Assembly (NCBI GenBank): GCA_044867445.1
Contig: JBIOUY010000116.1
Location: 2,611-66,610, forward strand
Direction of reading: 5' to 3'
Origin: Gemmatimonadales bacterium
GTDB taxonomy: Bacteria; Gemmatimonadota; Gemmatimonadetes; Gemmatimonadales; GWC2-71-9
Length of the DNA: 64,000 nt
The position numbers and the translations under genes are program-made. The notes beneath the pieces are model-generated. The model was not told the DNA's origin. It saw only the letters and a program-made list of their open reading frames with translations, and searched no databases. Shown piece by piece: positions 4,767-58,365 of the stretch (position 1 is its first letter; each line of letters begins with the position of its first letter).

Positions 4767-4768
4767 GC

Positions 4769-4951
4769 TCAGGCGTCCTCGACCTCGACCCGCTTCTTGC
4801 CCCCATAGTAGCCGCAGGAATCGCAGACCCGATGCGAGAGCTTGGGCGAGCCGCATCGGGGACAGGCTTGGGTGAGAGGTCCCGCCGCCGAATGATGCCC
4901 GCGACGCAGACGTTTCCGAGACTTCGAGGTTCGACGCTTGGGAACGGCCAT
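4769..4951 (-). CDS. rpmF: 50S ribosomal protein L32
   Basis: 60 aa starting [19 protein letters not shown], with zinc-ribbon cysteines CPRCG...CDSCG. Confidence 0.95.
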
Positions 4952-4958
4952 GTTGTCC

Positions 4959-5469: not shown

Positions 5470-5479
5470 GGCGGAAGGA

Positions 5480-5588
5480 CGTGAAAGGTGACAGGTGAGA
5501 GGTGAAAGGGCGGCTCAGATTCACCCTTCACGTCTCAACCCTCACGGCTCAGGTCTCCCCTTTTACGTCTCACCTTTCACCTTTCACG
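5480..5588. repeat. heptad-periodic quasi-palindrome 2 (units GTGAAAG/GTGACAG/GTGAGAG), ndk|yceD spacer
   Basis: 5480-5510 cgtgaaaggtgacaggtgagaggtgaaaggg matches the reverse complement of 5558-5588 at 28 of 31 positions. An inner competing copy cccttcacgtctcaaccctcac lies at 5524-5545. cggctcag is duplicated at 5511 and 5545. Confidence 0.85.
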
Positions 5589-5598
5589 CTTTACCCCC

Positions 5599-6021: not shown

Positions 6022-6036
6022 AGCAGAGCCCCCAAG

Positions 6037-6158
6037 AAAGTGAGAAGTAAGAAGTGAGAAGTGAGAAGTGAGAAGTGAGAAGTGAGAAGTGCCCCGCCGC
6101 TCCCGCCGGCGAAGCCACCCGCCGTTCCCGCCGCGCCTCACTTCTTACTTCTCACTTT
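6037..6158. repeat. heptad-periodic quasi-palindrome 3 (unit GTGAGAA), EIIA-CBS|ndk spacer
   Basis: 6040-6091 holds 7.4 tandem GTGAGAA/GTAAGAA units. 6137-6158 ctcacttcttacttctcacttt is the perfect reverse complement of 6037-6058 (22 bp). The loop is GC-rich. Confidence 0.9.
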
Positions 6159-7060
6159 ACTGCTCCCAGCACCTTCCGCACGATGTCCGCCCGGGTGAGA
6201 AAGCCGCGCAGGATGCCATCCTGCACCACCGGGACTCGTTCCACATCTTTGCTTGCGAGGAGCTGGGCGACCTCCGCCACCGACTGCTCCTCGGAGACGC
6301 AGAGGACATTGCGGGCCATCACCTCTCGCACCGGTGTGCTTCGCGGATCAGCGGCGGCTTTCACTCTAGCCGCTCCGGCCGGCACCTCACCGGTTGTCAT
6401 CCGCTGGACGTAGGCAGGCACCAGGTACCGGAGCAGTTCCCGATGAGAGAGCATGCCCACCAGCTCTCCCGACTCCGCCACGACCGGGACCGCACCCATC
6501 TGGCTGCTCACGAGAAGCTGTGCAGCCTCAGCCAGCGAGGTCTCCGGCTGCACCGCGGTGATCCGAGCCATCATGATATCCCGCACCAGCAACTGGCCGT
6601 GGAGCTCGATGTCCCGGAGGGTCGGCAGCGACAGAACCTCCTCGGACGAGCGAGCCGCCAGCAGCTGCTCCGCCACCTCAGGACGGGCCAGGGCACGAGC
6701 AAAGGCCGCCACCGTCTGCAGGTAGGCTGCTGCTTCACCGGGCGGGGCCACGATCAGGAGAATCATCGGCAACGCGGCAGTGCCGAGCTCCCGTCCGCTC
6801 ATCGGCTCCCGCGCGATGCCCAGCGCCACCACCAACGAGGGGACAGCATCGGTTCGGAAATGCGGCAGCCAGGCATGCGGCCCGATGCTCATGGTGTCTT
6901 CCGGCCAGCTTTCCCTGATCACCTCCTCCAGCCTGTGGGGATCGCTCACCCGGCCGTCCGCTTGGCATGCATCGATCAGGAGACGCATGCCCTCCTCCAG
7001 TGTGGTCGCGGGTAGCGGCACGATCACTCGGCGGGGACTGAGGAGGTCAGTGAGTCTCAC
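6152..7060 (-). CDS. fusion protein: PTS EIIA type-2 (PtsN-like) domain plus tandem CBS pair
   Basis: 302 aa. The N-terminal half resembles EIIA-2 ([12 protein letters not shown] His loop, [15 protein letters not shown]). The C-terminal half has two CBS repeats ([12 protein letters not shown]...; [12 protein letters not shown]...VPVV). GTG start overlaps the sucD stop (GTGA). Confidence 0.75.
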
Positions 7061-13888: not shown

Positions 13889-13901
13889 GCTTTCCTAACA
13901 G

Positions 13902-14003
13902 CGTGAACCGTGAAAGGTGAAACGTGAAAAGGACGGACGGCGCACCGGAGGTGTTGTGCCCTGTTACCTGTCACCTGTCACCTGTTACCTCTCACCTGTC
14001 ACC
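13902..14003. repeat. heptad-periodic two-block element 4 (CGTGAAA x4 ... CCTGTCA x6), nuoN|PMM spacer
   Basis: 13902-13932 cgtgaac cgtgaaa ggtgaaa cgtgaaa agg. 13960-14003 holds six units CCTGTTA/CCTGTCA/CCTCTCA. The arms are only partly complementary (shared GTGA core). The nuoN TGA lies inside the last unit. Confidence 0.8.
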
Positions 14004-15501
14004 GTCCAGCGACGGGCATGCCCGTCTGGGTCAATGTCTGCGCACTCCGCCCGGCCAGGTCCAGCAAGCCCCCGGGCCAGAAGCCGAACAGCAGGATCGC
14101 CGCAATCGAAAGCGCGAGGGCCCCCGCCGCGGCGGGTGCCAACCGAAGGCCGTCGAATCGCACCGATCTGGCGGCCGGCCTCATGTACATCGCCATAATC
14201 ACCGGCAGATAGTAGCCTGCGGAGACCACGCTGGTCAGCACCAGTATCACCGGTAGGATGACCTGCCCCTCAGCAACCACCGCCGTCAGGATGTACCACT
14301 TTCCAATGAACCCGAAGGTGCCGGGGAACCCCAGCAGCGAGAGCATGGAGACACTCAGTCCGGCCGCGACCCAGGGGCGAGTAGTGGCCAGGCCTGCGAT
14401 ATCATCGTAGGTCACATCCCGTTCCCCACCCCGACCGAGCACTGAGAGGAATCCGAAGCTCGCCAGGGTAGTGAGCCCATACGCCAGAAGGTAGGCCAGC
14501 ACAGCGCCGGCGCCGGTTCGAGAAGCGGGCCATACCGCTACCAGCAGGTACCCTGCGTGCGCAATAGAACTGTACGCCAACATCCGCTTCAGTGATCGCT
14601 GCGCCAGCGCAATCAGATTCCCTACCACCATCGAAGCGATAGCGAGGCCTGCGATAATCGGCTGCCAGATCCTATCGGCTGAGGGGAAGGTCTCGAGCAG
14701 CACTCGAACCAGAGCGGCGAACGCCGCCGCCTTGACCCCGCTCGCCATGAAGCCGGTGACCGGTGTGGGCGAGCCGTCGTACACATCCGGCGCCCACATA
14801 TGGAACGGAACGGCCGCGACCTTGAATGCGAAACCGATAAGCAGCAGCCCGAGGCCCAGGGCGGCCATCAAGGGCAATGGCCGTCCCGCGAGCTGCGCCC
14901 CGGCGATGGAGAGGTTCGTGGTTCCGGTGGCACCGTAGGTCAGCGCGATCCCGTAGAGCAGGAAACCGGAGGCAAAAGCACCGATCAGGAAGTATTTGAG
15001 CGCCGCCTCGGCGGAGAACGCATTGGCCCGGTTGTACCCGGCCAGGACGTAGACCGCTACCGACATGACCTCCAGCCCGAGGAACAGAACAATGAGGTCT
15101 TCCCCACCGGCGAGGAACATCATGCCGGCGGCAGCCAACAGGATCAGAGGGTAGTACTCTGGGGCCAGCAGGCGTTCCCGTTCCAGGTAGCCCAGCGAGA
15201 GCAGTATGGTTGCGCCGGCCGAGAGTAGCGCGATAGCCGAGGCGGCGTATCGAAAGGGATCGAGCGCCACCATCTGGGCCAGCCCATCGGGTACCACCTG
15301 GTTCACCCACAGCGCGGCGAGCCCTGCTCCGCTGACCAGGACCCCCGCGAAGCTGAGCCATCCCGCCAGACGACTGTCCTCTTCGGTCTGGTGACGCCAG
15401 CTCACGACCAGGAGCACGATGATGGCCCAGGTGGTGAGCAGGATCTCCGGGAGAAGTGCCAGCGTGATCCCCAGCGGCGAGGACAGGTCGAGCCGGGTCA
15501 T
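13999..15501 (-). CDS. nuoN: NADH-quinone oxidoreductase subunit N
   Basis: ORF 13999..15639 trimmed to ATG 15501 (ATGA overlap with the nuoM stop). About 500-aa antiporter-like polytopic protein, last gene of the nuo operon. Confidence 0.9.
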   Translation of the reverse strand: MTRLDLSSPLGITLALLPEILLTTWAIIVLLVVSWRHQTEEDSRLAGWLSFAGVLVSGAGLAALWVNQVVPDGLAQMVALDPFRYAASAIALLSAGATILLSLGYLERERLLAPEYYPLILLAAAGMMFLAGGEDLIVLFLGLEVMSVAVYVLAGYNRANAFSAEAALKYFLIGAFASGFLLYGIALTYGATGTTNLSIAGAQLAGRPLPLMAALGLGLLLIGFAFKVAAVPFHMWAPDVYDGSPTPVTGFMASGVKAAAFAALVRVLLETFPSADRIWQPIIAGLAIASMVVGNLIALAQRSLKRMLAYSSIAHAGYLLVAVWPASRTGAGAVLAYLLAYGLTTLASFGFLSVLGRGGERDVTYDDIAGLATTRPWVAAGLSVSMLSLLGFPGTFGFIGKWYILTAVVAEGQVILPVILVLTSVVSAGYYLPVIMAMYMRPAARSVRFDGLRLAPAAAGALALSIAAILLFGFWPGGLLDLAGRSAQTLTQTGMPVAGR

Positions 15502-23264: not shown

Positions 23265-23292
23265 CAAGATCCTCGCTGGACTCCGGAGGCGG

Positions 23293-23408
23293 TTTTACCA
23301 CGGAGGCACAGAGGGCACAGAGCCCACCGAGAAATGCTTTGGTTGAACAGCACACCCACAAAGCTTCTGCTCTGTGCCCTCTGTGTGCTCTGTGCCTCTG
23401 TGGTAAAG
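23293..23408. repeat. nonamer-periodic quasi-palindrome 5 (unit GGCACAGAG), nuoF|nuoG spacer
   Basis: Left arm ttttaccacggag(gcacagagg)(gcacagag)c at 23293-23323 has 2 units. Right arm 23369-23408 has 3 units (ctctgtgcc ctctgtgtg ctctgtgcc) followed by tctgtggtaaag. The stem is about 30 bp with a 9-nt bulge. Confidence 0.85.
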
Positions 23409-28261: not shown

Positions 28262-28418
28262 GGGACTCGGCTTTCGTGAATTTTTTCACTTATATGGGCA
28301 AGGTAACGCGGTCAGAGAGCGGATTCAACTCTGCGCGCGCCCCTGCTCTCGCTATATTCCCCGCCGTTCCGGCAGGGTACAATCCTGCCACATTCTGTCC
28401 GCCGTTCCCCGAGGCGCC
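28262..28418. promoter_or_regulatory. divergent nuoA / dcd control region
   Basis: 157-nt spacer between divergent genes. Inverted repeat GTGAAttttTTCAC at 28276-28289. A minus-strand TATAAG -10-like box lies just upstream of it relative to nuoA. A plus-strand TACAAT at 28378-28383 sits in the loop of ggcagg/cctgcc. Direct repeat ccgccgttcc at 28361 and 28399. Confidence 0.3.
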
Positions 28419-32761: not shown

Positions 32762-32767
32762 ACGGGA

Positions 32768-32921
32768 GTGAGAAGTAAGAGGTCAGAGGTGACAGGTAAG
32801 AGGTAAGAGGGGCCGAGCTCAAAGTGCGCTCCGGCCCTTCAGCTATCACCTATCACCTGTCACCGGTCACCTCTACCTCTCACGCCGTACTATCTTACTG
32901 CTCACTGCTCACTGCTTACTG
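32768..32921. repeat. heptad-periodic three-block element 6, CHAD-CYTH|M1 paralog 2 spacer
   Basis: 32768-32809 has six units GTGAGAA GTAAGAG GTCAGAG GTGACAG GTAAGAG GTAAGAG. A GC clamp gggccg/cggccc sits at 32810-32837. 32843-32883 has six complementary units (CTATCAC..CTCTCAC). 32894-32921 has four units CTTACTG/CTCACTG. Confidence 0.85.
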
Positions 32922-32939
32922 TCTTCCCGGGGTTTCCCT

Positions 32940-34913
32940 TTGCGACTGCCGTCCGTTCTCTCCATTCTCTGCCTCACTGCCACCGCCGCGCTGGCTCAGC
33001 AGCCGCCGTCCGCGACCGCGGGAGCACCCGATACCACAGCCTTTCGGCGCTTGACCCTGCCAACGCCGAACGAGTTCCGCACGGGCAGCGGTGCCCCAGG
33101 CCCGCGCTATTGGCAGCAGCGCGCCGATTACGTCATCCGAGCCAGCCTTGACACGGTGAGCCGCAGCGTACGCGGCACGGAGCGGATTACCTATACAAAC
33201 AACTCGCCCGACACCCTCCGTTACCTGTGGCTCCAACTGGACCAGAATCTCTTTACTCGTAAGAGCCGCGGCGCCGCCATCTTCGATCGCGGCGCCAGGT
33301 TCGGAACCGCGGGCGCGGAGGGCGGATTCCATCTTTCCAGGGTCGCCCAGCCAGCCCGGGCCGCCGGCAAGACGGCCGCAGGGGCGGTTGCACTCAAGTA
33401 CCTCGTCAACGGCACCATGATGCGGGTCGATCTACCCCGCCCTCTGCCACCTCGATCGAAACAGCTGCTCGACATTGAGTGGTCTTTTCCATTTGGGCCC
33501 AATGCCAACCGAATGGGAATCGAGGAGATCGACGGCGGCGTGATTTACGAGTCGGCTCAGTGGTACCCTCGGCTCGCGGTGTATGACGACGTGCAGGGCT
33601 GGAACACGGAGCAATACTATGGCCAGGGCGAGTTTTACCTGGAGTACGGCAATTTCGATGTGAGCCTCACCGTGCCGGCGGACATGATCGTCGCCGCGTC
33701 CGGAGTGCTTCAGAATTCGATCGACGTGCTGACCGCGGAGCAGCGTAGCCGCTTGGCACGGGCGCGAACCAGCGACGCCACGGTGATCATTCGCAGCAAG
33801 GCCGAGATCGGCAGCCCATCGTCGCGACCACGGGCCCCCCGCGGTACCCTCACCTGGCGCTTCGTGGCCGACAGTGTGCGCGATTTTGCCTGGGCCGCTG
33901 CTCGGCATTTCATCTGGGATGCTGTCCGGGTAAATCGGGGCAAGACCCTGGCGATGAGCTTCTATCCACCTTCTGCCGACTCGATCTGGAACCAGGCGAG
34001 TCAATATGCCAAGACAGCCATCGAGAACTACTCGGAGCAATGGCGTCCCTATCCGTACCCGACGGCAAGCAACGTCAATGGCATCGAGGGCGGGATGGAG
34101 TACCCGATGATCGTTTTCTGTCATAACCGCACTGATCCGCAGGCGCTGTACGGCGTCACCGACCATGAGTTCGGCCACGCCTGGTTTCCCATGCTGGTGG
34201 GGAGCAACGAACGGCTGTACGGCTGGATGGATGAAGGCTTCAACAGCTTCATGAATCACTACAACTTTCCCAAGAAGTTCCCCGGCGCACCGCTGCCGAC
34301 CGCGCGAGGAGTTCCGGAGACCTATCTGAGGAATGCTCTCTCAGGCACAGAGCAGCCGATCATGACGCCGGCCGACCGAATGAAGAACACGGACAACTGG
34401 CGCCAGGGCCTGTACAACAAACCCGCTGTCGGCCTGGTGCTGCTTCGCGAGCACATCACCTCACCGGAGCGCTTCGATCCGGTCTTCCGGGAGTACATTC
34501 GCCGATGGGCCAACAAACATCCCACTCCGGCTGATTTCTTTCGGACGATGGAAGACGGGTTGGGTGAGGATCTGAGCTGGTTCTGGCGCTCCTGGTTCTA
34601 TACCACCGAGCAGCTCGACCAGGCGGTGGATTCCGTCGTGTTCGCCGACTCGGCGGGAATCGCGTCACGGGTGTACCTGCGCAATGCGGGCGGGATGCCA
34701 ATGCCGCTCGAGTTGAGCCTCGCGATGGACGATGGCACTACCCAAACTTTGAGCCTGCCAGTGGAGATCTGGTTCGCCGGGGACCGCTATACCGCGCTCA
34801 TACCCGGGCCCAAGCGGGTGCGGAACGTCACCATTGATCCGAGAGGATGGTACCCGGACGTGCGGCGGGAGAACAATCACTGGCCGGCGGGCATGACAAG
34901 CAGTGAGAAGTGA
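32940..34913 (+). CDS. secreted M1-family zinc metallopeptidase (paralog 2)
   Basis: 657 aa with a TTG start and signal peptide MRLPSVLSILCLTATAALAQQ. Carries GGMEYPM and HEFGHAWFPMLVGSNERLYGWMDEGFNSF. Colinear similarity to the 29206..31221 product. Confidence 0.85.
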   Translation: MRLPSVLSILCLTATAALAQQPPSATAGAPDTTAFRRLTLPTPNEFRTGSGAPGPRYWQQRADYVIRASLDTVSRSVRGTERITYTNNSPDTLRYLWLQLDQNLFTRKSRGAAIFDRGARFGTAGAEGGFHLSRVAQPARAAGKTAAGAVALKYLVNGTMMRVDLPRPLPPRSKQLLDIEWSFPFGPNANRMGIEEIDGGVIYESAQWYPRLAVYDDVQGWNTEQYYGQGEFYLEYGNFDVSLTVPADMIVAASGVLQNSIDVLTAEQRSRLARARTSDATVIIRSKAEIGSPSSRPRAPRGTLTWRFVADSVRDFAWAAARHFIWDAVRVNRGKTLAMSFYPPSADSIWNQASQYAKTAIENYSEQWRPYPYPTASNVNGIEGGMEYPMIVFCHNRTDPQALYGVTDHEFGHAWFPMLVGSNERLYGWMDEGFNSFMNHYNFPKKFPGAPLPTARGVPETYLRNALSGTEQPIMTPADRMKNTDNWRQGLYNKPAVGLVLLREHITSPERFDPVFREYIRRWANKHPTPADFFRTMEDGLGEDLSWFWRSWFYTTEQLDQAVDSVVFADSAGIASRVYLRNAGGMPMPLELSLAMDDGTTQTLSLPVEIWFAGDRYTALIPGPKRVRNVTIDPRGWYPDVRRENNHWPAGMTSSEK

Positions 34914-35066
34914 GAAGCGAGAAGTAAGCAGTGAGAAGTGAGGAGTGAAGAGTGAGAGGAGAGTAATCCCCATCCCGAGTGAAACGAGGCATCTATTGGG
35001 CGGCCATCAAGGCCGGGCGAGTAGGTGTCACCTCTCACCTGTCACCTCTCACCCTCACTGCTTCTC
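34903..35066. repeat. heptad-periodic quasi-palindrome 7 between convergent genes (M1 paralog 2 / LVIVD lipoprotein)
   Basis: 34903-34963 has eight units (GTGAGAA x2, GCGAGAA, GTAAGCA, GTGAGAA, GTGAGGA, GTGAAGA, GTGAGAG). 35026-35066 is tgtcacctctcacctgtcacctctcaccctcactgcttctc. Both genes' TGA stop codons lie inside the arms. Confidence 0.85.
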
Positions 35067-38294: not shown

Positions 38295-38307
38295 GAGATC
38301 TCCGGAA

Positions 38308-38384
38308 GTCTCGGGTCACGGGTCGCGGGTCTCGAGAAGACTGAGCCGCGCAAGGCCCGCGACTCGCGACCCGCAGCCCGCGAC

Positions 38385-38385
<1 letters not shown>
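38308..38385. repeat. heptad-periodic quasi-palindrome 8 (unit GTCGCGG), sdhA|sdhB spacer
   Basis: 38308-38336 gtctcgg gtcacgg gtcgcgg gtctcga g. 38356-38385 cccgcga ctcgcga cccgcag cccgcga cc. Same family as 55445-55533. Confidence 0.85.
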
Positions 38386-40298
<1,913 letters not shown>

Positions 40299-40320
40299 GC
40301 TGTCTGTCTCCTATTCGGAA

Positions 40321-40539
40321 GTAAGGAGTGAGGAGTGAGGAGTGAAGAGTACGTGACCTCGACGTGAAGTCGCAGCGAGTACCCCGGCTCCCAACCACTC
40401 CTACTCCTCACTCCTTACTCCTTACCCCTCACTCCTCACCCCTCACTCCTCACCCCTCACTCCTTACTGCTTGCTCCTCACCTCTCACCTGTCACCTTTC
40501 ACCTGTCACCTGTCACCTTCTCACTTCTCACTTTATCAC
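40321..40539. repeat. heptad-periodic element 9: 4-unit arm plus roughly 20-unit complementary array, sdhC|sdhA spacer
   Basis: 40321-40350 GTAAGGA GTGAGGA GTGAGGA GTGAAGA. 40398-40539 has about 20 consecutive units of type TCCTCAC/TCCTTAC/CCCTCAC/CTGTCAC/CTTTCAC/TTCTCAC. The last units encode the sdhC C-terminus and stop. Confidence 0.9.
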
Positions 40540-41187
40540 TCCCGCAACCACCGCTATCGGAATCACGGTAAACCCCAGCCATACGAACACCGCGAGCACC
40601 AACGCCAGCCGCCGGCGCATGGGGCGGGGCGACGGAGGGCTGATGCCCAGGCTGCGGCCTCCGCTCCAGATCCCGTGGTAGAGATGAAGCCCGACGGCCG
40701 CCATAGCCACGAGGTAAAACGCCACCACGAGAGGGCTGCGGAACCCCACCGTCACGTTGTGATAGGGGTCGCCCTCGACAAAATCTGAGTGAACTGTCCC
40801 CAGGGTGAAATGGAGGATGTGGTAGATCAAGAACACCAGAATGAGTACTCCACCCCAGCGGATGGTGCGTGACGCCAGTGTAGAAACCTGCGGCTCACCA
40901 CCGCCCTGATAGCCGATCGGTCGCGCGGCACGCCGGCGAAGAGTCAGCTGCAGCGCAGCGACCACGTGGAGCACCAATGACGCCAGCAGGACCAGTCGCG
41001 CGGCCCACAGCGCACCTCCCGTTCCGTGAAGGAAGGCGCTGTAGGCATTGATGCGAACTGGTCCCTGAAAAACGAGGAGATTGGCCAGGACATGCGTGAT
41101 CAAATACGCCACCATGATGAATCCGGTGACGGCCATGACCACTTTTTTTCCGACCGACGAGTCCCAGAAGACCCGTATGCGATTCAC
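40528..41187 (-). CDS. sdhC: succinate dehydrogenase cytochrome b subunit (b558-type, five TM helices)
   Basis: 219 aa. MNRIRVFWDSSVGKKVVMAVTGFIMVAYLITHVLANL..., polytopic with conserved His residues. Directly upstream of sdhA. Confidence 0.85.
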   Translation of the reverse strand: MNRIRVFWDSSVGKKVVMAVTGFIMVAYLITHVLANLLVFQGPVRINAYSAFLHGTGGALWAARLVLLASLVLHVVAALQLTLRRRAARPIGYQGGGEPQVSTLASRTIRWGGVLILVFLIYHILHFTLGTVHSDFVEGDPYHNVTVGFRSPLVVAFYLVAMAAVGLHLYHGIWSGGRSLGISPPSPRPMRRRLALVLAVFVWLGFTVIPIAVVAGVIK

Positions 41188-41199
41188 CGGGCCTCCCTG

Positions 41200-42129
41200 T
41201 TAGCCGTCGACCACCGCCTGTGTCGCTCGCACTGCCTCGGCGGACTTGTGCAGCTCCTCCCGCTCGGCATCGCTGAGCTTGATCTCCAGGATGCGCTCCA
41301 GCCCGGCTCGACCGAGCTTGCACGGCACCCCGCAGAATACGTCCCGCAGGCCAAACTCCCCCTGGAGCCACGCCGAACAGGGCAGGATGCGCTTCTTGTC
41401 CAGCGCAATCGCCTCAACCATCTGGACCGCAGCGGCGCTGGGGGCGTAGTAGGCGGAGCCGGTCTTAAGGAAGGCCACGATCTCGGCGCCGCCGTTCCGG
41501 GTACGATCGACGATGGAGGTGAGCTTGGCGGCGTCGATGAGCTGGCTCACCGGAATGCCCGAGACCGTCGTGTAGGATACCAGTGGGACCATGGTGTCAC
41601 CGTGTCCGCCCAACACCATGGCCTGGATGTCCTCAACCGACACATCCAGGGCCTCAGACAGGAACATCCGATAGCGCGCGGTATCGAGGACGCCGGCCAT
41701 GCCGATCACCCGCTCTCGAGGAAAGCCGGTCGTCTTCTTCACCACATAGCACATGACATCCAGCGGATTCGAGACCACCACCACGACGGACCGAGGGGCA
41801 ACCTGCGCAATCTGTTCGCTGACGGAGCGGACGATTCCAGCGTTTGTCTTGACCAGATCGTCACGGCTCATCCCCGGCTTCCGGGCGATTCCAGCCGTTA
41901 CCACCACAACCTCGGCGCCGGCTGCCTCTTCATAGGTCTGGGCACCGGTAATCCGCGCGTCAAAGCCCTCGATCGGTCCCGACTGCCACTGGTCCAATGC
42001 CTTCCCCTGCGGCACGCCGTCGATGACATCGACCATGATGACCCGGCGAGCCAGACTCTTCTCAGCCAGGCGCTGCGCAGCGGTGGCCCCCACGTTCCCT
42101 GCCCCGACAACGACGACTTTTTCGAGCAT
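41200..42129 (-). CDS. mdh: malate dehydrogenase (LDH-like type)
   Basis: ORF 41200..42279 trimmed to ATG 42129, because the upstream codons only translate the repeat. [35 protein letters not shown] and GGHGD. Confidence 0.92.
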
Positions 42130-42188
42130 GGACAGACCTGACCCGGGGTAAATGGATGCGGTGGAAGGGGAAGCGACAGAATATAGTA

Positions 42189-42332
42189 GTGAGAAGTGAG
42201 AAGTAAGAAGTGAGAAGAGGTGACAGGTGAGACGTGAGACGTGACAGGTAAGACCTGAGAGGCACCGCTTACCTGTCACCTGTCACCTTTCACCTGTCAC
42301 CTCCCTCTCACTTCTTAATTCTTATTTCTCAC
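42189..42332. repeat. heptad-periodic quasi-palindrome 10 (64/65-nt arms), trmL|mdh spacer
   Basis: The left arm 42189-42252 and the reverse complement of the right arm 42268-42332 align unit by unit (about 55 of 64 positions). The loop is acctgagaggcaccg. The right arm encodes the last 5 codons and the TAA of trmL. Confidence 0.9.
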
Positions 42333-42776
42333 TGTAGTTCTGATCGCCTCGTATAGCACGATCCCCGCGGCCGTCGCCAGATTGAGGCTCCGCACCGGCC
42401 CGCCCATCGGAATCGTGAAACATCGTTCCGGATGTTTTTGCAGGATCCGCGTCGGCATTCCCTCGGTTTCGCTGCCGAACACGAGGCAGCTGTTGACCTC
42501 ATAGGGGGCGTCCCAAAAGGAGCGCTCCGCGTTAGCCGAGAAGTAGAGACAGCGATCGCGCCCTATGGCATCCCGAAACGCGAACCAGTCGGGATGGACC
42601 CAGAGATCTACCGCGTGCCAATAGTCCAGGCCGGCACGCTTCAACTCGCTGTCGTCCAGGGAAAAACCCAGCGGTTCAATCAGGTGGAGCGAGGTGTCGG
42701 TGGCGGCGCAAAGCCGGGCGATGTTGCCGGTATTCGGAGGGATCTGGGGTTGAATCAGCGCGACGTGCAGCGCCAT
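42315..42776 (-). CDS. trmL: tRNA (cytidine/uridine-2'-O)-methyltransferase TrmL (SpoU family)
   Basis: ORF trimmed to ATG 42776 (1-nt overlap with the moaA stop). MALHVALIQPQIPPNTGNIARLCAAT. 153 aa. Confidence 0.88.
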   Translation of the reverse strand: MALHVALIQPQIPPNTGNIARLCAATDTSLHLIEPLGFSLDDSELKRAGLDYWHAVDLWVHPDWFAFRDAIGRDRCLYFSANAERSFWDAPYEVNSCLVFGSETEGMPTRILQKHPERCFTIPMGGPVRSLNLATAAGIVLYEAIRTTVRNKN

Positions 42777-44539: not shown

Positions 44540-44556
44540 GCTTGGAAGCTAATGGA

Positions 44557-44599
44557 AAAGGGGCCTCGCCGGGTTCGCATTCCCGGAGTGGACCCCTTG
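44557..44599 (-). terminator. candidate intrinsic terminator after the HU/IHF-family gene
   Basis: The minus strand reads CAAGGGGTCCACTCCGGGAATGCGAACCCGGCGAGGCCCCTTTTCC. This gives an imperfect GC-rich stem (AAGGGG/CCCCTT outer, CCGGG/CCCGG inner) followed by a short T-run. Confidence 0.4.
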
Positions 44600-55444: not shown

Positions 55445-55533
55445 GTCGTTAGTCGCGGTCGCGGGTCGCGAGTCGCGGGTCATGAGACTTGAGGTCTTCC
55501 TGTCGCAGCCCGAGACCCGCAGCCCACGACCCC
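55445..55533. repeat. heptad-periodic quasi-palindrome 11 (unit GTCGCGG), comF|gap spacer
   Basis: 55445-55485 gtcgtta gtcgcg gtcgcgg gtcgcga gtcgcgg gtcatga. 55502-55533 gtcgcag cccgaga cccgcag cccacga cccc. 55511-55531 matches 38365-38385 at 19 of 21 positions. Confidence 0.85.
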
Positions 55534-57521: not shown

Positions 57522-57544
57522 GGCCCGTAAGATAGTCTGGAACA

Positions 57545-57712
57545 AGCTAACAGCTAACAGCTAACAGCTAACAGCTGACAGCAGATTGCTGACAGCTGAC
57601 AGCTCTAACAGCTAAAGGCTAAAGGCGAACAGCTGTCGGACGCGCGGCGGGGCGACGCCTCAACAACAGCTACTATCAGCTATCAGCTGTTAGCTGTTAG
57701 CTGTTAGCTGTT
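57545..57712. repeat. heptad-periodic quasi-palindrome 12 (unit AGCTAAC), tsaC|phosphatase spacer
   Basis: Four AGCTAAC units plus AGCTGAC units run from 57545. 57551-57580 matches the reverse complement of 57681-57710 at 29 of 30 positions. The right arm has three units of type TGTTAGC. Confidence 0.9.
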
Positions 57713-57714
57713 TC

Positions 57715-58365
57715 TCATGGCGCCAACCGTCCCGCAGCCCGACGCAGCTCGGGTCGGGGTATGGCTCCTTCTCTCACCATTCGCGGCATCACACCCGTGC
57801 AATCCACCAATGTCGAGGGCGGGACGTTGCCGAGCACGCCGCCGTCCAGCACCAGGAGATCGCCCCGGTCGATATCTGCCCGAAATACCTCGATCAGTCC
57901 ATCGGCACCGGGCGCCGGCTGCGTGCCCGGCCGATTGGCCGATGTTGAGGTGATCGGATAGTCCAGCTCCTCGATCAGCCGGGCGATACCGCGATGCGAG
58001 GTGTACCGCACCGCGATGCCACCCTCTCGACCGCGCAATTGGTCCGGCAGCCGTCCCTCGCCTCCCCGAAGCACGAGGGTCAGCGGGCCCGGCCAGAAGG
58101 CGTCGGAGAGCGCTTGCGCCGAGGGGGAGAAAACCAGCCCCCACTCTTCTGCCATCCGTCGGCTCGAGACCAGAAGCAGAAATGGCTTTCCCGCTGCCCG
58201 GCCCTTGAGCCGGGCCAAGGCCTCCAACCCCGAGACGCTCGGAGCCGAGCCCAGACCATAGACTGTCTCGGTGGGATAGGCCAGAACTCTGCTGCCCCCC
58301 AGGTGATTCCGCACCATCGGAATGGCGGCGGCGACTTCATTGGTACTCCGAAAGGGAAGAATCAC
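57715..58365 (-). CDS. tsaC: L-threonylcarbamoyladenylate synthase (TsaC/YrdC/Sua5 family)
   Basis: ORF trimmed to GTG 58365 (GTGA overlap with the ispD stop). YPTETVYGLG, KPFLLLV and TSANRPG motifs. 216 aa. Confidence 0.85.
   Translation of the reverse strand: MILPFRSTNEVAAAIPMVRNHLGGSRVLAYPTETVYGLGSAPSVSGLEALARLKGRAAGKPFLLLVSSRRMAEEWGLVFSPSAQALSDAFWPGPLTLVLRGGEGRLPDQLRGREGGIAVRYTSHRGIARLIEELDYPITSTSANRPGTQPAPGADGLIEVFRADIDRGDLLVLDGGVLGNVPPSTLVDCTGVMPRMVREGAIPRPELRRAAGRLAP

Follow-up and report, generated by a model that had tools for sequence, protein, structure and literature searches.

The spacer between trmL and mdh in a stretch of DNA from a Gemmatimonadales bacterium (contig JBIOUY010000116.1; the whole stretch, of 64,000 nt, is called the window below) contained a long stem-loop made of degenerate 7-nt units, at positions 42187–42334. 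The element is probably a heptanucleotide simple-sequence repeat (SSR) that was turned into a quasi-palindrome by slippage and inverted copying. At this site it would be tolerated, its effect on RNA limited at most to a tail-less 3′ end or a barrier to decay, and RNase III would likely cut it. Paired inverted arrays of 7-nt units, more rarely of 8 or 9 nt, form a class that occurs genome-wide in the Gemmatimonadales, and the element belongs to this class. As the orthologous spacers show, the palindromes are secondary, lineage-specific and hypervariable. What is new is that a repeat type already known, though unexplained, is present in a new phylum, the Gemmatimonadota, with units that are not G-rich; no report of heptamer repeats of this sort in this phylum was found in the searchable literature.

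The stem-loop covered 148 nt of DNA, with a stem of 61–63 bp, and the genes on both sides were on the minus strand. The trmL/mdh spacer measured 185 nt. The left arm (42189–42252, 64 nt) was GTGAGAA GTGAGAA GTAAGAA GTGAGAA gag GTGACAG GTGAGAC GTGAGAC GTGACAG GTAAG, and the reverse complement of the right arm (42268–42332, 65 nt) was GTGAGAA ATAAGAA TTAAGAA GTGAGAG ggag GTGACAG GTGAAAG GTGACAG GTGACAG GTAAG. Each arm comprised two sub-arrays, four GTGAGAA-type units and then four GTGACAG-type units with GTAAG, joined irregularly by GAG in one arm and by GGAG in the other. When aligned to each other the arms showed 56 matches over 64 positions (88% complementary), with eight mismatches and one single-base gap, and the stem ran two bases beyond each arm, to 42187 and 42334. 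The arm sequences, the unit make-up, the two sub-families and the 15-nt loop were as in a preliminary description of this DNA. The same description had taken the conserved order of units from arm to arm as evidence in its own right, and this only restates that the arms are complementary.

The self-match at period 7 was 0.77 in one arm and 0.72 in the other, whereas neighbouring periods gave 0.14–0.42, and none of 10,000 shuffles equalled it; Tandem Repeats Finder (TRF) detected period 7 in both arms. The minimum free energy of the RNA was −97.5 kcal/mol for the plus strand (z −12.6) and −91.8 kcal/mol for the minus strand (z −10.4), the shuffles having a mean of about −42 kcal/mol with none of 200 as good. 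The DNA folding energy was −51.1 kcal/mol (z −11.5), so that the RNA and DNA folds were both far below shuffles (z −10.4 to −12.6). The RNA fold was more stable on the non-transcribed than on the transcribed strand.

On the minus strand the order was moaE, moaA, trmL, hairpin, mdh, sdhC, sdhA, sdhB, and trmL, mdh, moaA, moaE and sdhCAB lay where the preliminary description had placed them, with moaDEA-trmL on one side and mdh-sdhCAB on the other. The TAA stop codon of trmL was situated 17 nt within the stem, and therefore about the last five to six residues of TrmL (the ..VRNKN tail) were encoded by heptads. The TATATT hexamer (42180–42185, minus strand), described earlier as a −10-like box, was present and began 2 nt beyond the mdh-side arm. 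It was promoter-like, and most orthologous spacers had a conserved TAnAtT box 37–75 nt before the mdh ATG. Upstream of mdh in hairpin-less relatives (spacers in L001–L075), the conserved −35-like motif GGGGTTTGCC was followed after 17 nt by TAnAtT, and GGGGTTTGCC-N17-TAnAtT is likely the −35/−10 promoter of mdh. The GGGGTTTGCC motif was absent from orthologous spacers wherever a heptad hairpin was present, and the 3′ arm took its place. A consensus promoter scan gave no match at the hairpins. CTATATT occurred only twice in the window, the other copy being at 28352–28358 on the plus strand, 61 nt upstream of the start of a dcd-like gene, in a divergent spacer.

The succession of trmL and mdh was kept in about 50 species-level relatives, and the Mdh of the window was 80–87% identical to that of many Gemmatimonadales metagenome-assembled genomes (MAGs). 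The palindrome was not conserved at this position. Around ten of the approximately 50 spacers carried heptad hairpins made of other units (GGGAGTC/GGGAATC, GAGTCGC, CAGTCGC), one carried the 9-mer CACAGAGGC, some had unrelated hairpins, and many had no hairpin. Among the spacers, those of L010 and L019 showed another long hairpin of 216–334 nt, with units of about 10–11 nt containing CACGGAT / ATCCGTG and a branched interior. Two metagenome contigs from congeners, L084 and L085, encoded an Mdh 97–98% identical to that of the window; their DNA was 86% identical to the window and 98.3% identical between them. The spacer had the boundaries of the window, '...ATCAGAACTACRGTGAGAA' next to trmL and 'CACTATATT' next to mdh, and the unit family was also that of the window. 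The purine arm had 16–17 units versus 4–5 pyrimidine units, the mirrored outer TTCTCAC units were lacking, and L084 and L085 differed from each other in both arms. The element thus varied in length and sequence among close relatives, with L084, L085 and the window all different at trmL/mdh.

The preliminary description had argued for selection on, or copying of, the whole palindrome. Copying is supported: the mirrored GAG/GGAG joint, together with the congeners, in which the 5′ array was the same and the mirrored outer TTCTCAC units were missing, indicates that the symmetric form arose as a lineage-specific inverted copy. Selection on the whole palindrome is unsupported, because strains 98% identical to each other had highly variable forms of the element, and most relatives had a different element or none. 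A bias of G·U pairs was also missing. In 30 hairpins, 111 of 1348 pairs were of this type on the sense strand versus 100 of 1311 on the antisense strand, which is no sense-strand bias, and the better-folding strand was the sense strand in 17 cases and the antisense strand in 10, with 3 ties.

The sdh junctions showed the same turnover. In most relatives sdhA/sdhB and sdhC/sdhA were separated by −3 to +25 nt (overlap or tight stop/start), and other relatives had heptad structures of 40–230 nt there, with at least eight unrelated units and some one-armed forms. The sdhC/sdhA junction measured 229 nt in the window versus a 45-nt one-armed array in L085, the final unit of which was apparently the ribosome-binding site of sdhA. 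One-armed, lopsided and symmetric forms were all found at the same orthologous junction. The independent assembly GCA_044866105.1 (L081, contig JBIOTS010000154.1), 99.7% identical to the window over 6.9 kb, was without exactly 14 nt of the sdhC/sdhA array (40428–40441, GGGGTGA GGAGTGA, two heptads), and the remainder of the 6.9 kb showed only six single-nucleotide polymorphisms (SNPs). Such changes by whole units are the signature of slipped-strand mispairing.

The same assembly bears on whether the hairpin could be a fold-back or a mis-joined repeat produced by the assembler. Inverted repeats are a weak spot of De Bruijn assemblers, and a Logan unitig (L083, SRR30692709_1063548) was broken within the hairpin, matching the window up to 42271, where the trmL-side arm meets the loop. 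Palindromes of this sort fragment unitig-level assemblies. However, the hairpin was identical in L081, the two assemblies differing by SNPs elsewhere. Its flanks are two different genes in syntenic position, its loop is unique, and comparable hairpins were present in dozens of independent MAGs obtained with different pipelines. An assembly artefact, which would have undone the preliminary description, is extremely improbable.

Comparable palindromes were found in 12 of the 24 window spacers of at least 60 nt, and made up about 1.56 kb of the 3.9 kb of intergenic DNA (about 40%). They were located with TRF and a period-7 scan, in spacers taken from a self-trained codon-model gene map, the genes being named by Pfam (Table 1). 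Stem lengths ranged from 30 to 76 bp. The trmL/mdh hairpin was not the largest element, as had been proposed: the tsaC/phosphatase palindrome (57539–57716) had 76 pairs and −106.6 kcal/mol, and the sdhC/sdhA array covered 226 nt. All 12 elements were downstream of a stop codon, which they abutted or overlapped; the sole divergent spacer of the window had none and the sole convergent spacer had one. The arrays filled the spacer as far as the ribosome-binding site of the following gene, or at trmL/mdh as far as the −10 box, and ended 12–25 nt short of the next start codon; members occurred inside the fab, nuo and sdh operons. One unit family was common to eight loci, which differed in the length of the array, the order of the units and the symmetry of the arms, so that no fixed element was seen. 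The stops of the upstream genes were mostly in phase within a GTGAnnn or TAA-containing unit (42315–42334, 1841–1852, 6152–6163, 13999–14010, 34902–34913 and 40528–40539); as 7 is not a multiple of 3, stops occur in all frames within three units. Array-encoded C-terminal tails were seen in TrmL, the M1 peptidase and SdhC. The 9-mer of the nuoF/nuoG palindrome (CACAGAGGC / CTCTGTGCC) also formed the trmL/mdh hairpin of species L008 (about 1560–1640).

Table 1. Location of the trmL/mdh hairpin, its flanking genes and the other paired arrays of the window.
Feature	Position	Strand	Remarks
trmL (SpoU-type tRNA methyltransferase, SpoU_methylase), 153 aa	42315–42776	−	stop TAA 42315–42317
5′ arm on transcribed strand	42268–42334	−	caGTGAGAA ATAAGAA TTAAGAA GTGAGAG GGAG GTGACAG GTGAAAG GTGACAG GTGACAG GTAAG; purine-rich; covers last 6 trmL codons and stop
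Loop, 15 nt	42253–42267	−	CGGTGCCTCTCAGGT on minus strand; loop sequence unique
3′ arm on transcribed strand	42187–42252	−	CTTAC CTGTCAC GTCTCAC GTCTCAC CTGTCAC CTC TTCTCAC TTCTTAC TTCTCAC TTCTCAC ta; pyrimidine-rich
CTATATT, −10-like box	42180–42186	−	directly after hairpin; ends 50 nt upstream of mdh ATG; kept in orthologous spacers
mdh (malate dehydrogenase), 309 aa	41200–42129	−	heads mdh-sdhCAB run
fabD/fabG member	1779–1846	−	CGTGAAA units
ndk/yceD member	5478–5592	−	
CBS/EIIA protein and ndk, member between	6036–6157	−	unequal arms, 3 vs 7.7 units
nuoN and phosphoglucomutase-like gene, member between	13900–14003	−	
nuoF/nuoG sister element	23290–23405	−	9-nt unit CACAGAGGC
CHAD protein and M1 peptidase, member between	32766–32926	+	
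M1 peptidase and hypothetical gene (convergent), member between	34897–35062	.	both stop codons within arms
sdhA/sdhB member	38307–38385	−	GTCGCGG-type units
sdhC/sdhA member	40315–40540	−	about 24 purine-rich heptads opposite 5-unit pyrimidine arm
Phosphoribosyltransferase and gap, member between	55452–55532	−	GTCGCGG units
tsaC (Sua5) and low-molecular-weight phosphatase, member between	57539–57716	−	CAGCTAA units; 76 bp, −106.6 kcal/mol; exceeds trmL/mdh hairpin

In 1.08 Mb of Gemmatimonadales DNA (the window and L001–L163), period 7 was represented by 103 arrays, period 8 by 32, period 9 by 16 and period 6 by 12. The heptad units had 53 distinct forms falling into 27 clusters.

We propose that units were gained and lost by replication slippage, and that inverted copying, by intramolecular template switching, would have created the second arm and would keep the arms complementary. 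As inverted copying would suffice for complementarity, there is no need of RNA-level selection. The element would then persist because additional DNA between a stop codon and the expression signal that follows would disturb least when folded into a tight stem. Quasipalindrome template-switch mutagenesis is a mechanism known from E. coli genetics. It would copy arm onto arm and maintain the complementarity of imperfect palindromes without selection, and it fits the mirrored GAG/GGAG; it differs in being known for point mutations in short quasipalindromes, and it is not known to build 60-bp arms. At the RNA level, read-through moaA-trmL transcripts would form a stem of some 60 bp beginning in the final trmL codons. 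This stem would most likely be a tail-less pause or 3′ end and a barrier to exonucleases and, as long double-stranded RNA, a substrate of RNase III. The mdh gene would keep its own −10 box 2 nt downstream, the ancestral −35-like motif having presumably been displaced by the 3′ arm.

Several points weigh against this origin by slippage and copying, or against the passive role attached to it. The RNA ends, the pausing and the action of RNase III at the hairpin are things that we infer throughout from the sequence. The 14-nt difference between the window and L081 could be a short-read assembly collapse and not a true polymorphism. Many hairpin-less relatives had a short GC-rich inverted repeat at the same position, and some hairpin function at this site may therefore be ancestral. 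Of at least 31 inverted heptad pairs in the 1.08 Mb, 23 had the purine-rich arm on the 5′ side and 3 the pyrimidine-rich arm; this bias is intrinsic, since both strands of a palindrome give the same reading, and it could reflect a function. Finally, the sub-families GTGAGAA, GTGACAG and GTGAAAS were present at 3–6 separate loci of the window genome. Purely local slippage is insufficient to explain such recurrence, which may point to copies passing from locus to locus or to selection on particular sequences.

The recurring sub-families, and the fact that related genomes use other 'dialects' (GGGAGTC, GAGTCGC), would be expected if the arrays were dispersed mobile or protein-recognised repeats, either REPIN- or MITE-like or made of binding sites with 7 nt per subunit, for instance for cold-shock-domain proteins. 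The sequence of the unit would then matter and copies would spread. In Xanthomonas, a single unit is dominant at about 185 loci (PMC4692102), and a work cited in PMC4679880 describes the binding of one heptamer per cold-shock protein domain. On the other hand, there were at least 27 unit clusters among the relatives and several unrelated units in one genome. The arrays had no fixed length, no terminal inverted repeats independent of the array and no convincing target-site duplication. A Pfam scan of approximately 50 of the 61 genes of the window gave no transposase and no REP-associated transposase (RAYT, a Y1 transposase), which also counts against mobility. The longest strings shared between arrays of different loci were at most 27 nt, within chance for a small unit alphabet of 3–4 letters, and were uninformative on copying between loci. 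We hold dispersal or protein recognition to be very unlikely. The trmL/mdh element was also considered as a MITE with a target-site duplication, and this was rejected: the entire element is the inverted repeat, and the flanking ACTAC/ACTA overlaps the conserved −10 context. Mimicry of Shine-Dalgarno (SD) or anti-SD sequences was rejected as a general property, being absent from GTCGCGG, CAGCTAA and GGCCGTT units. SD-like strings (GGAGGTGA, AGGTGA, AGGAG) did occur in many purine-arm units, for example at 42297–42304 (reverse complement GGAGGTGA) and within 40315–40540, and anti-SD-like CACCTC in pyrimidine arms.

The position of the hairpin, which begins within the last trmL codons and stops 2 nt before the conserved −10-like box, suggests a factor-independent tail-less ('I-shaped') terminator or insulator that would end the moaA-trmL transcript and shield the mdh promoter, the heptads being incidental. 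Some hairpin was present in this spacer in many relatives, and members were always downstream of a stop, with none in the divergent and one in the convergent spacer. Canonical terminators were not enriched in the window, where three scans gave 15, 6 and 8 terminator-like sites versus about 10 expected each, not above shuffles, and another signal may serve. Yet the trmL/mdh hairpin had no U-tract, its tail being CUACUAUAUUCUGUCGC, and the terminator scan showed no match at 41900–42600 nor at any member of the family. Similar hairpins were situated in nuoF/nuoG, sdhC/sdhA/sdhB and fabD/fabG, with no space for a promoter; efficient termination inside the nuo, sdh and fab operons would silence essential genes, which argues against a terminator. 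In addition the spacer was hairpin-less in many relatives, and the arm lengths were strongly unequal in close relatives. Ordinary terminators may also be in use, since a canonical-looking one followed the HU gene at about 44554–44598 on the minus strand (AAGGGG..CCCCUU stem and UUUUCC), with a fold weakly better than shuffles (z −1.9). Efficient termination at the trmL/mdh hairpin is unlikely, and a terminator or insulator is an unlikely explanation of the element as a whole.

The members lie in intercistronic sites of multi-subunit operons, tight against the upstream stop, with no more than the ribosome-binding site left free. This placement might rather designate an RNA processing or stability element, a long perfect duplex cut by RNase III or blocking 3′ exonucleases and uncoupling the decay of the upstream and downstream cistrons in the manner of REP/BIME and of intercistronic stem-loops. 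RNase III requires roughly 20 bp, and the 30–76-bp stems are far beyond this need. The Xanthomonas counterparts are reported as transcribed (PMC4692102). Against such a role, no sense-strand wobble bias was seen, one-armed arrays existed at the same junctions, and the hairpins were sporadic among relatives whose operons function without them. We consider an RNA processing or stability element quite unlikely. With an origin by slippage and inverted copying, cleavage or exonuclease blocking would be at most a consequence of the tolerated stem.

The described repeats closest in architecture are the heptameric SSRs of Xanthomonas (GGGAATC) and Nostoc (GGGGAYT), which often form convergent inverted pairs (Rehm et al. 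2015, PMC4692102). In Xanthomonas, about 90% are intergenic, at an average of 28 nt from the upstream stop and nearer to it than to the next start; each genome contains 70–75 pairs of facing opposite-strand arrays, potential stem-loops, which are rare between divergent genes (PMC4692102). They vary in length and sequence among close relatives, show no link to a gene class, and their function is unknown (PMC4692102). The trmL/mdh hairpin had the same tandem head-to-tail degenerate 7-nt units in two opposite-strand arrays, 15 nt apart, in an intergenic site abutting the upstream stop, and the class was likewise rare between divergent genes and variable among close relatives. Some relatives of the window (L012) even had GGGAGTC/GGGAATC units, and the purine-arm-first bias agrees with the reported 'convergent' orientation. 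In contrast, the window units GTGAGAA, GTGACAG and GTGAGAC had no GGG run. Several unit families were present within one genome, the stems reached 60–76 bp, the stop codon was overlapped, core operons were split, and the phylum was a different one, Gemmatimonadota. A G-quadruplex reading of the trmL/mdh element was rejected, as there were no G-tracts. With every structural feature of the Xanthomonas type present except the G-tract, the G-quadruplex explanation is weakened for the whole class.

Heptanucleotides are the commonest class among long prokaryotic SSRs or variable-number tandem repeats (Mrazek et al. 2007, as summarised in PMC4679880 and PMC4692102), and the cause proposed in that study is the length of DNA that the replicative polymerase holds. 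The dominance of period 7 and the strain-level changes in unit number, fitting slipped-strand mispairing, are alike in the Gemmatimonadales. The SSRs treated in that study are direct arrays, whereas the Gemmatimonadales arrays were mostly inverted pairs, with the purine arm first in 23 of 31. The TAACTGA heptamers of Beggiatoaceae and cyanobacteria are direct repeats that lie immediately before start codons and share one unit sequence, only one inverted case being reported (MacGregor 2015, PMC4679880). They resemble the present arrays in being intergenic, with 2–6 or more units containing stop triplets, and in an unexplained phylogenetic scatter; they differ by their direct orientation, start-codon proximity and single unit sequence. 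The REP, BIME and REPIN sequences of Enterobacteria and Pseudomonas are fixed palindromes of conserved sequence, about 20–40 nt long, which RAYT transposases mobilise (e.g. Nunvar et al. 2010, PMC2817692). They too are abundant intergenic palindromes at 3′ ends or between cistrons, form hairpin doublets, are sporadic at orthologous sites and have proposed roles in mRNA stability and protein binding. They are not variable-number tandem heptads, and RAYT was lacking in the gene set scanned above. Intrinsic terminators share a stable stem-loop straight after the stop codon; the window elements had no U-tract, a stem 3–10 times longer, and members within the nuo, sdh and fab operons. The Rfam covariance models gave no match at gathering score in the whole window. 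By the defining features of these classes, the trmL/mdh element is not a MITE, a member of an Rfam family or an intrinsic terminator, and it is probably not a REP/REPIN.

Why heptamers dominate long bacterial microsatellites, and why they are often facing pairs beside stop codons, are old open questions, and the sole detailed study (Xanthomonas, Nostoc) relied on G-quadruplex potential. Here the same architecture was found with many unrelated units, mostly without a G run, so that what stays constant is the period of 7 nt, the pairing of inverted arms and their position, and the sequence changes. A broader and doubtful extension would be a sequence-independent '7-nt ruler' operating in the Gemmatimonadales, and independently in Xanthomonas and some cyanobacteria: replication or repair would add or remove exact units of 7 nt, less often of 8–9 nt, at gene ends and then mirror them by template switching. 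If such a ruler existed, long structured intercistronic RNAs would arise de novo inside core operons, and the unit dialects and purine-first bias would denote either the passage of arrays from locus to locus or a trans-acting factor that reads them with a footprint of one heptad. The orthologous series from overlapping stop/start to one-armed array, lopsided hairpin and symmetric 60-bp hairpin is a comparative system for the birth and growth of hairpins. In practice, heptad palindromes break unitig assemblies, append array-encoded tails to proteins (TrmL), and could pass for terminators or regulatory RNAs in annotation.

Two further observations were made. Pairs of inverted 8-nt arrays (GCGGGGAA / CTTACCCG / GCGGGTAA) were a recurrent feature of many relatives at 1.7–2.7 kb upstream of mdh, a position that probably falls in the HU/moaE spacer (L007 2291–2419, L097 1192–1355, L121 294–446, also L089, L099, L101 and others); the HU/moaE spacer of the window itself was without them. 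The plsX/yceD 'spacer' at 4767–4958 on the minus strand, for which the gene map has no entry, appears to encode ribosomal protein L32.

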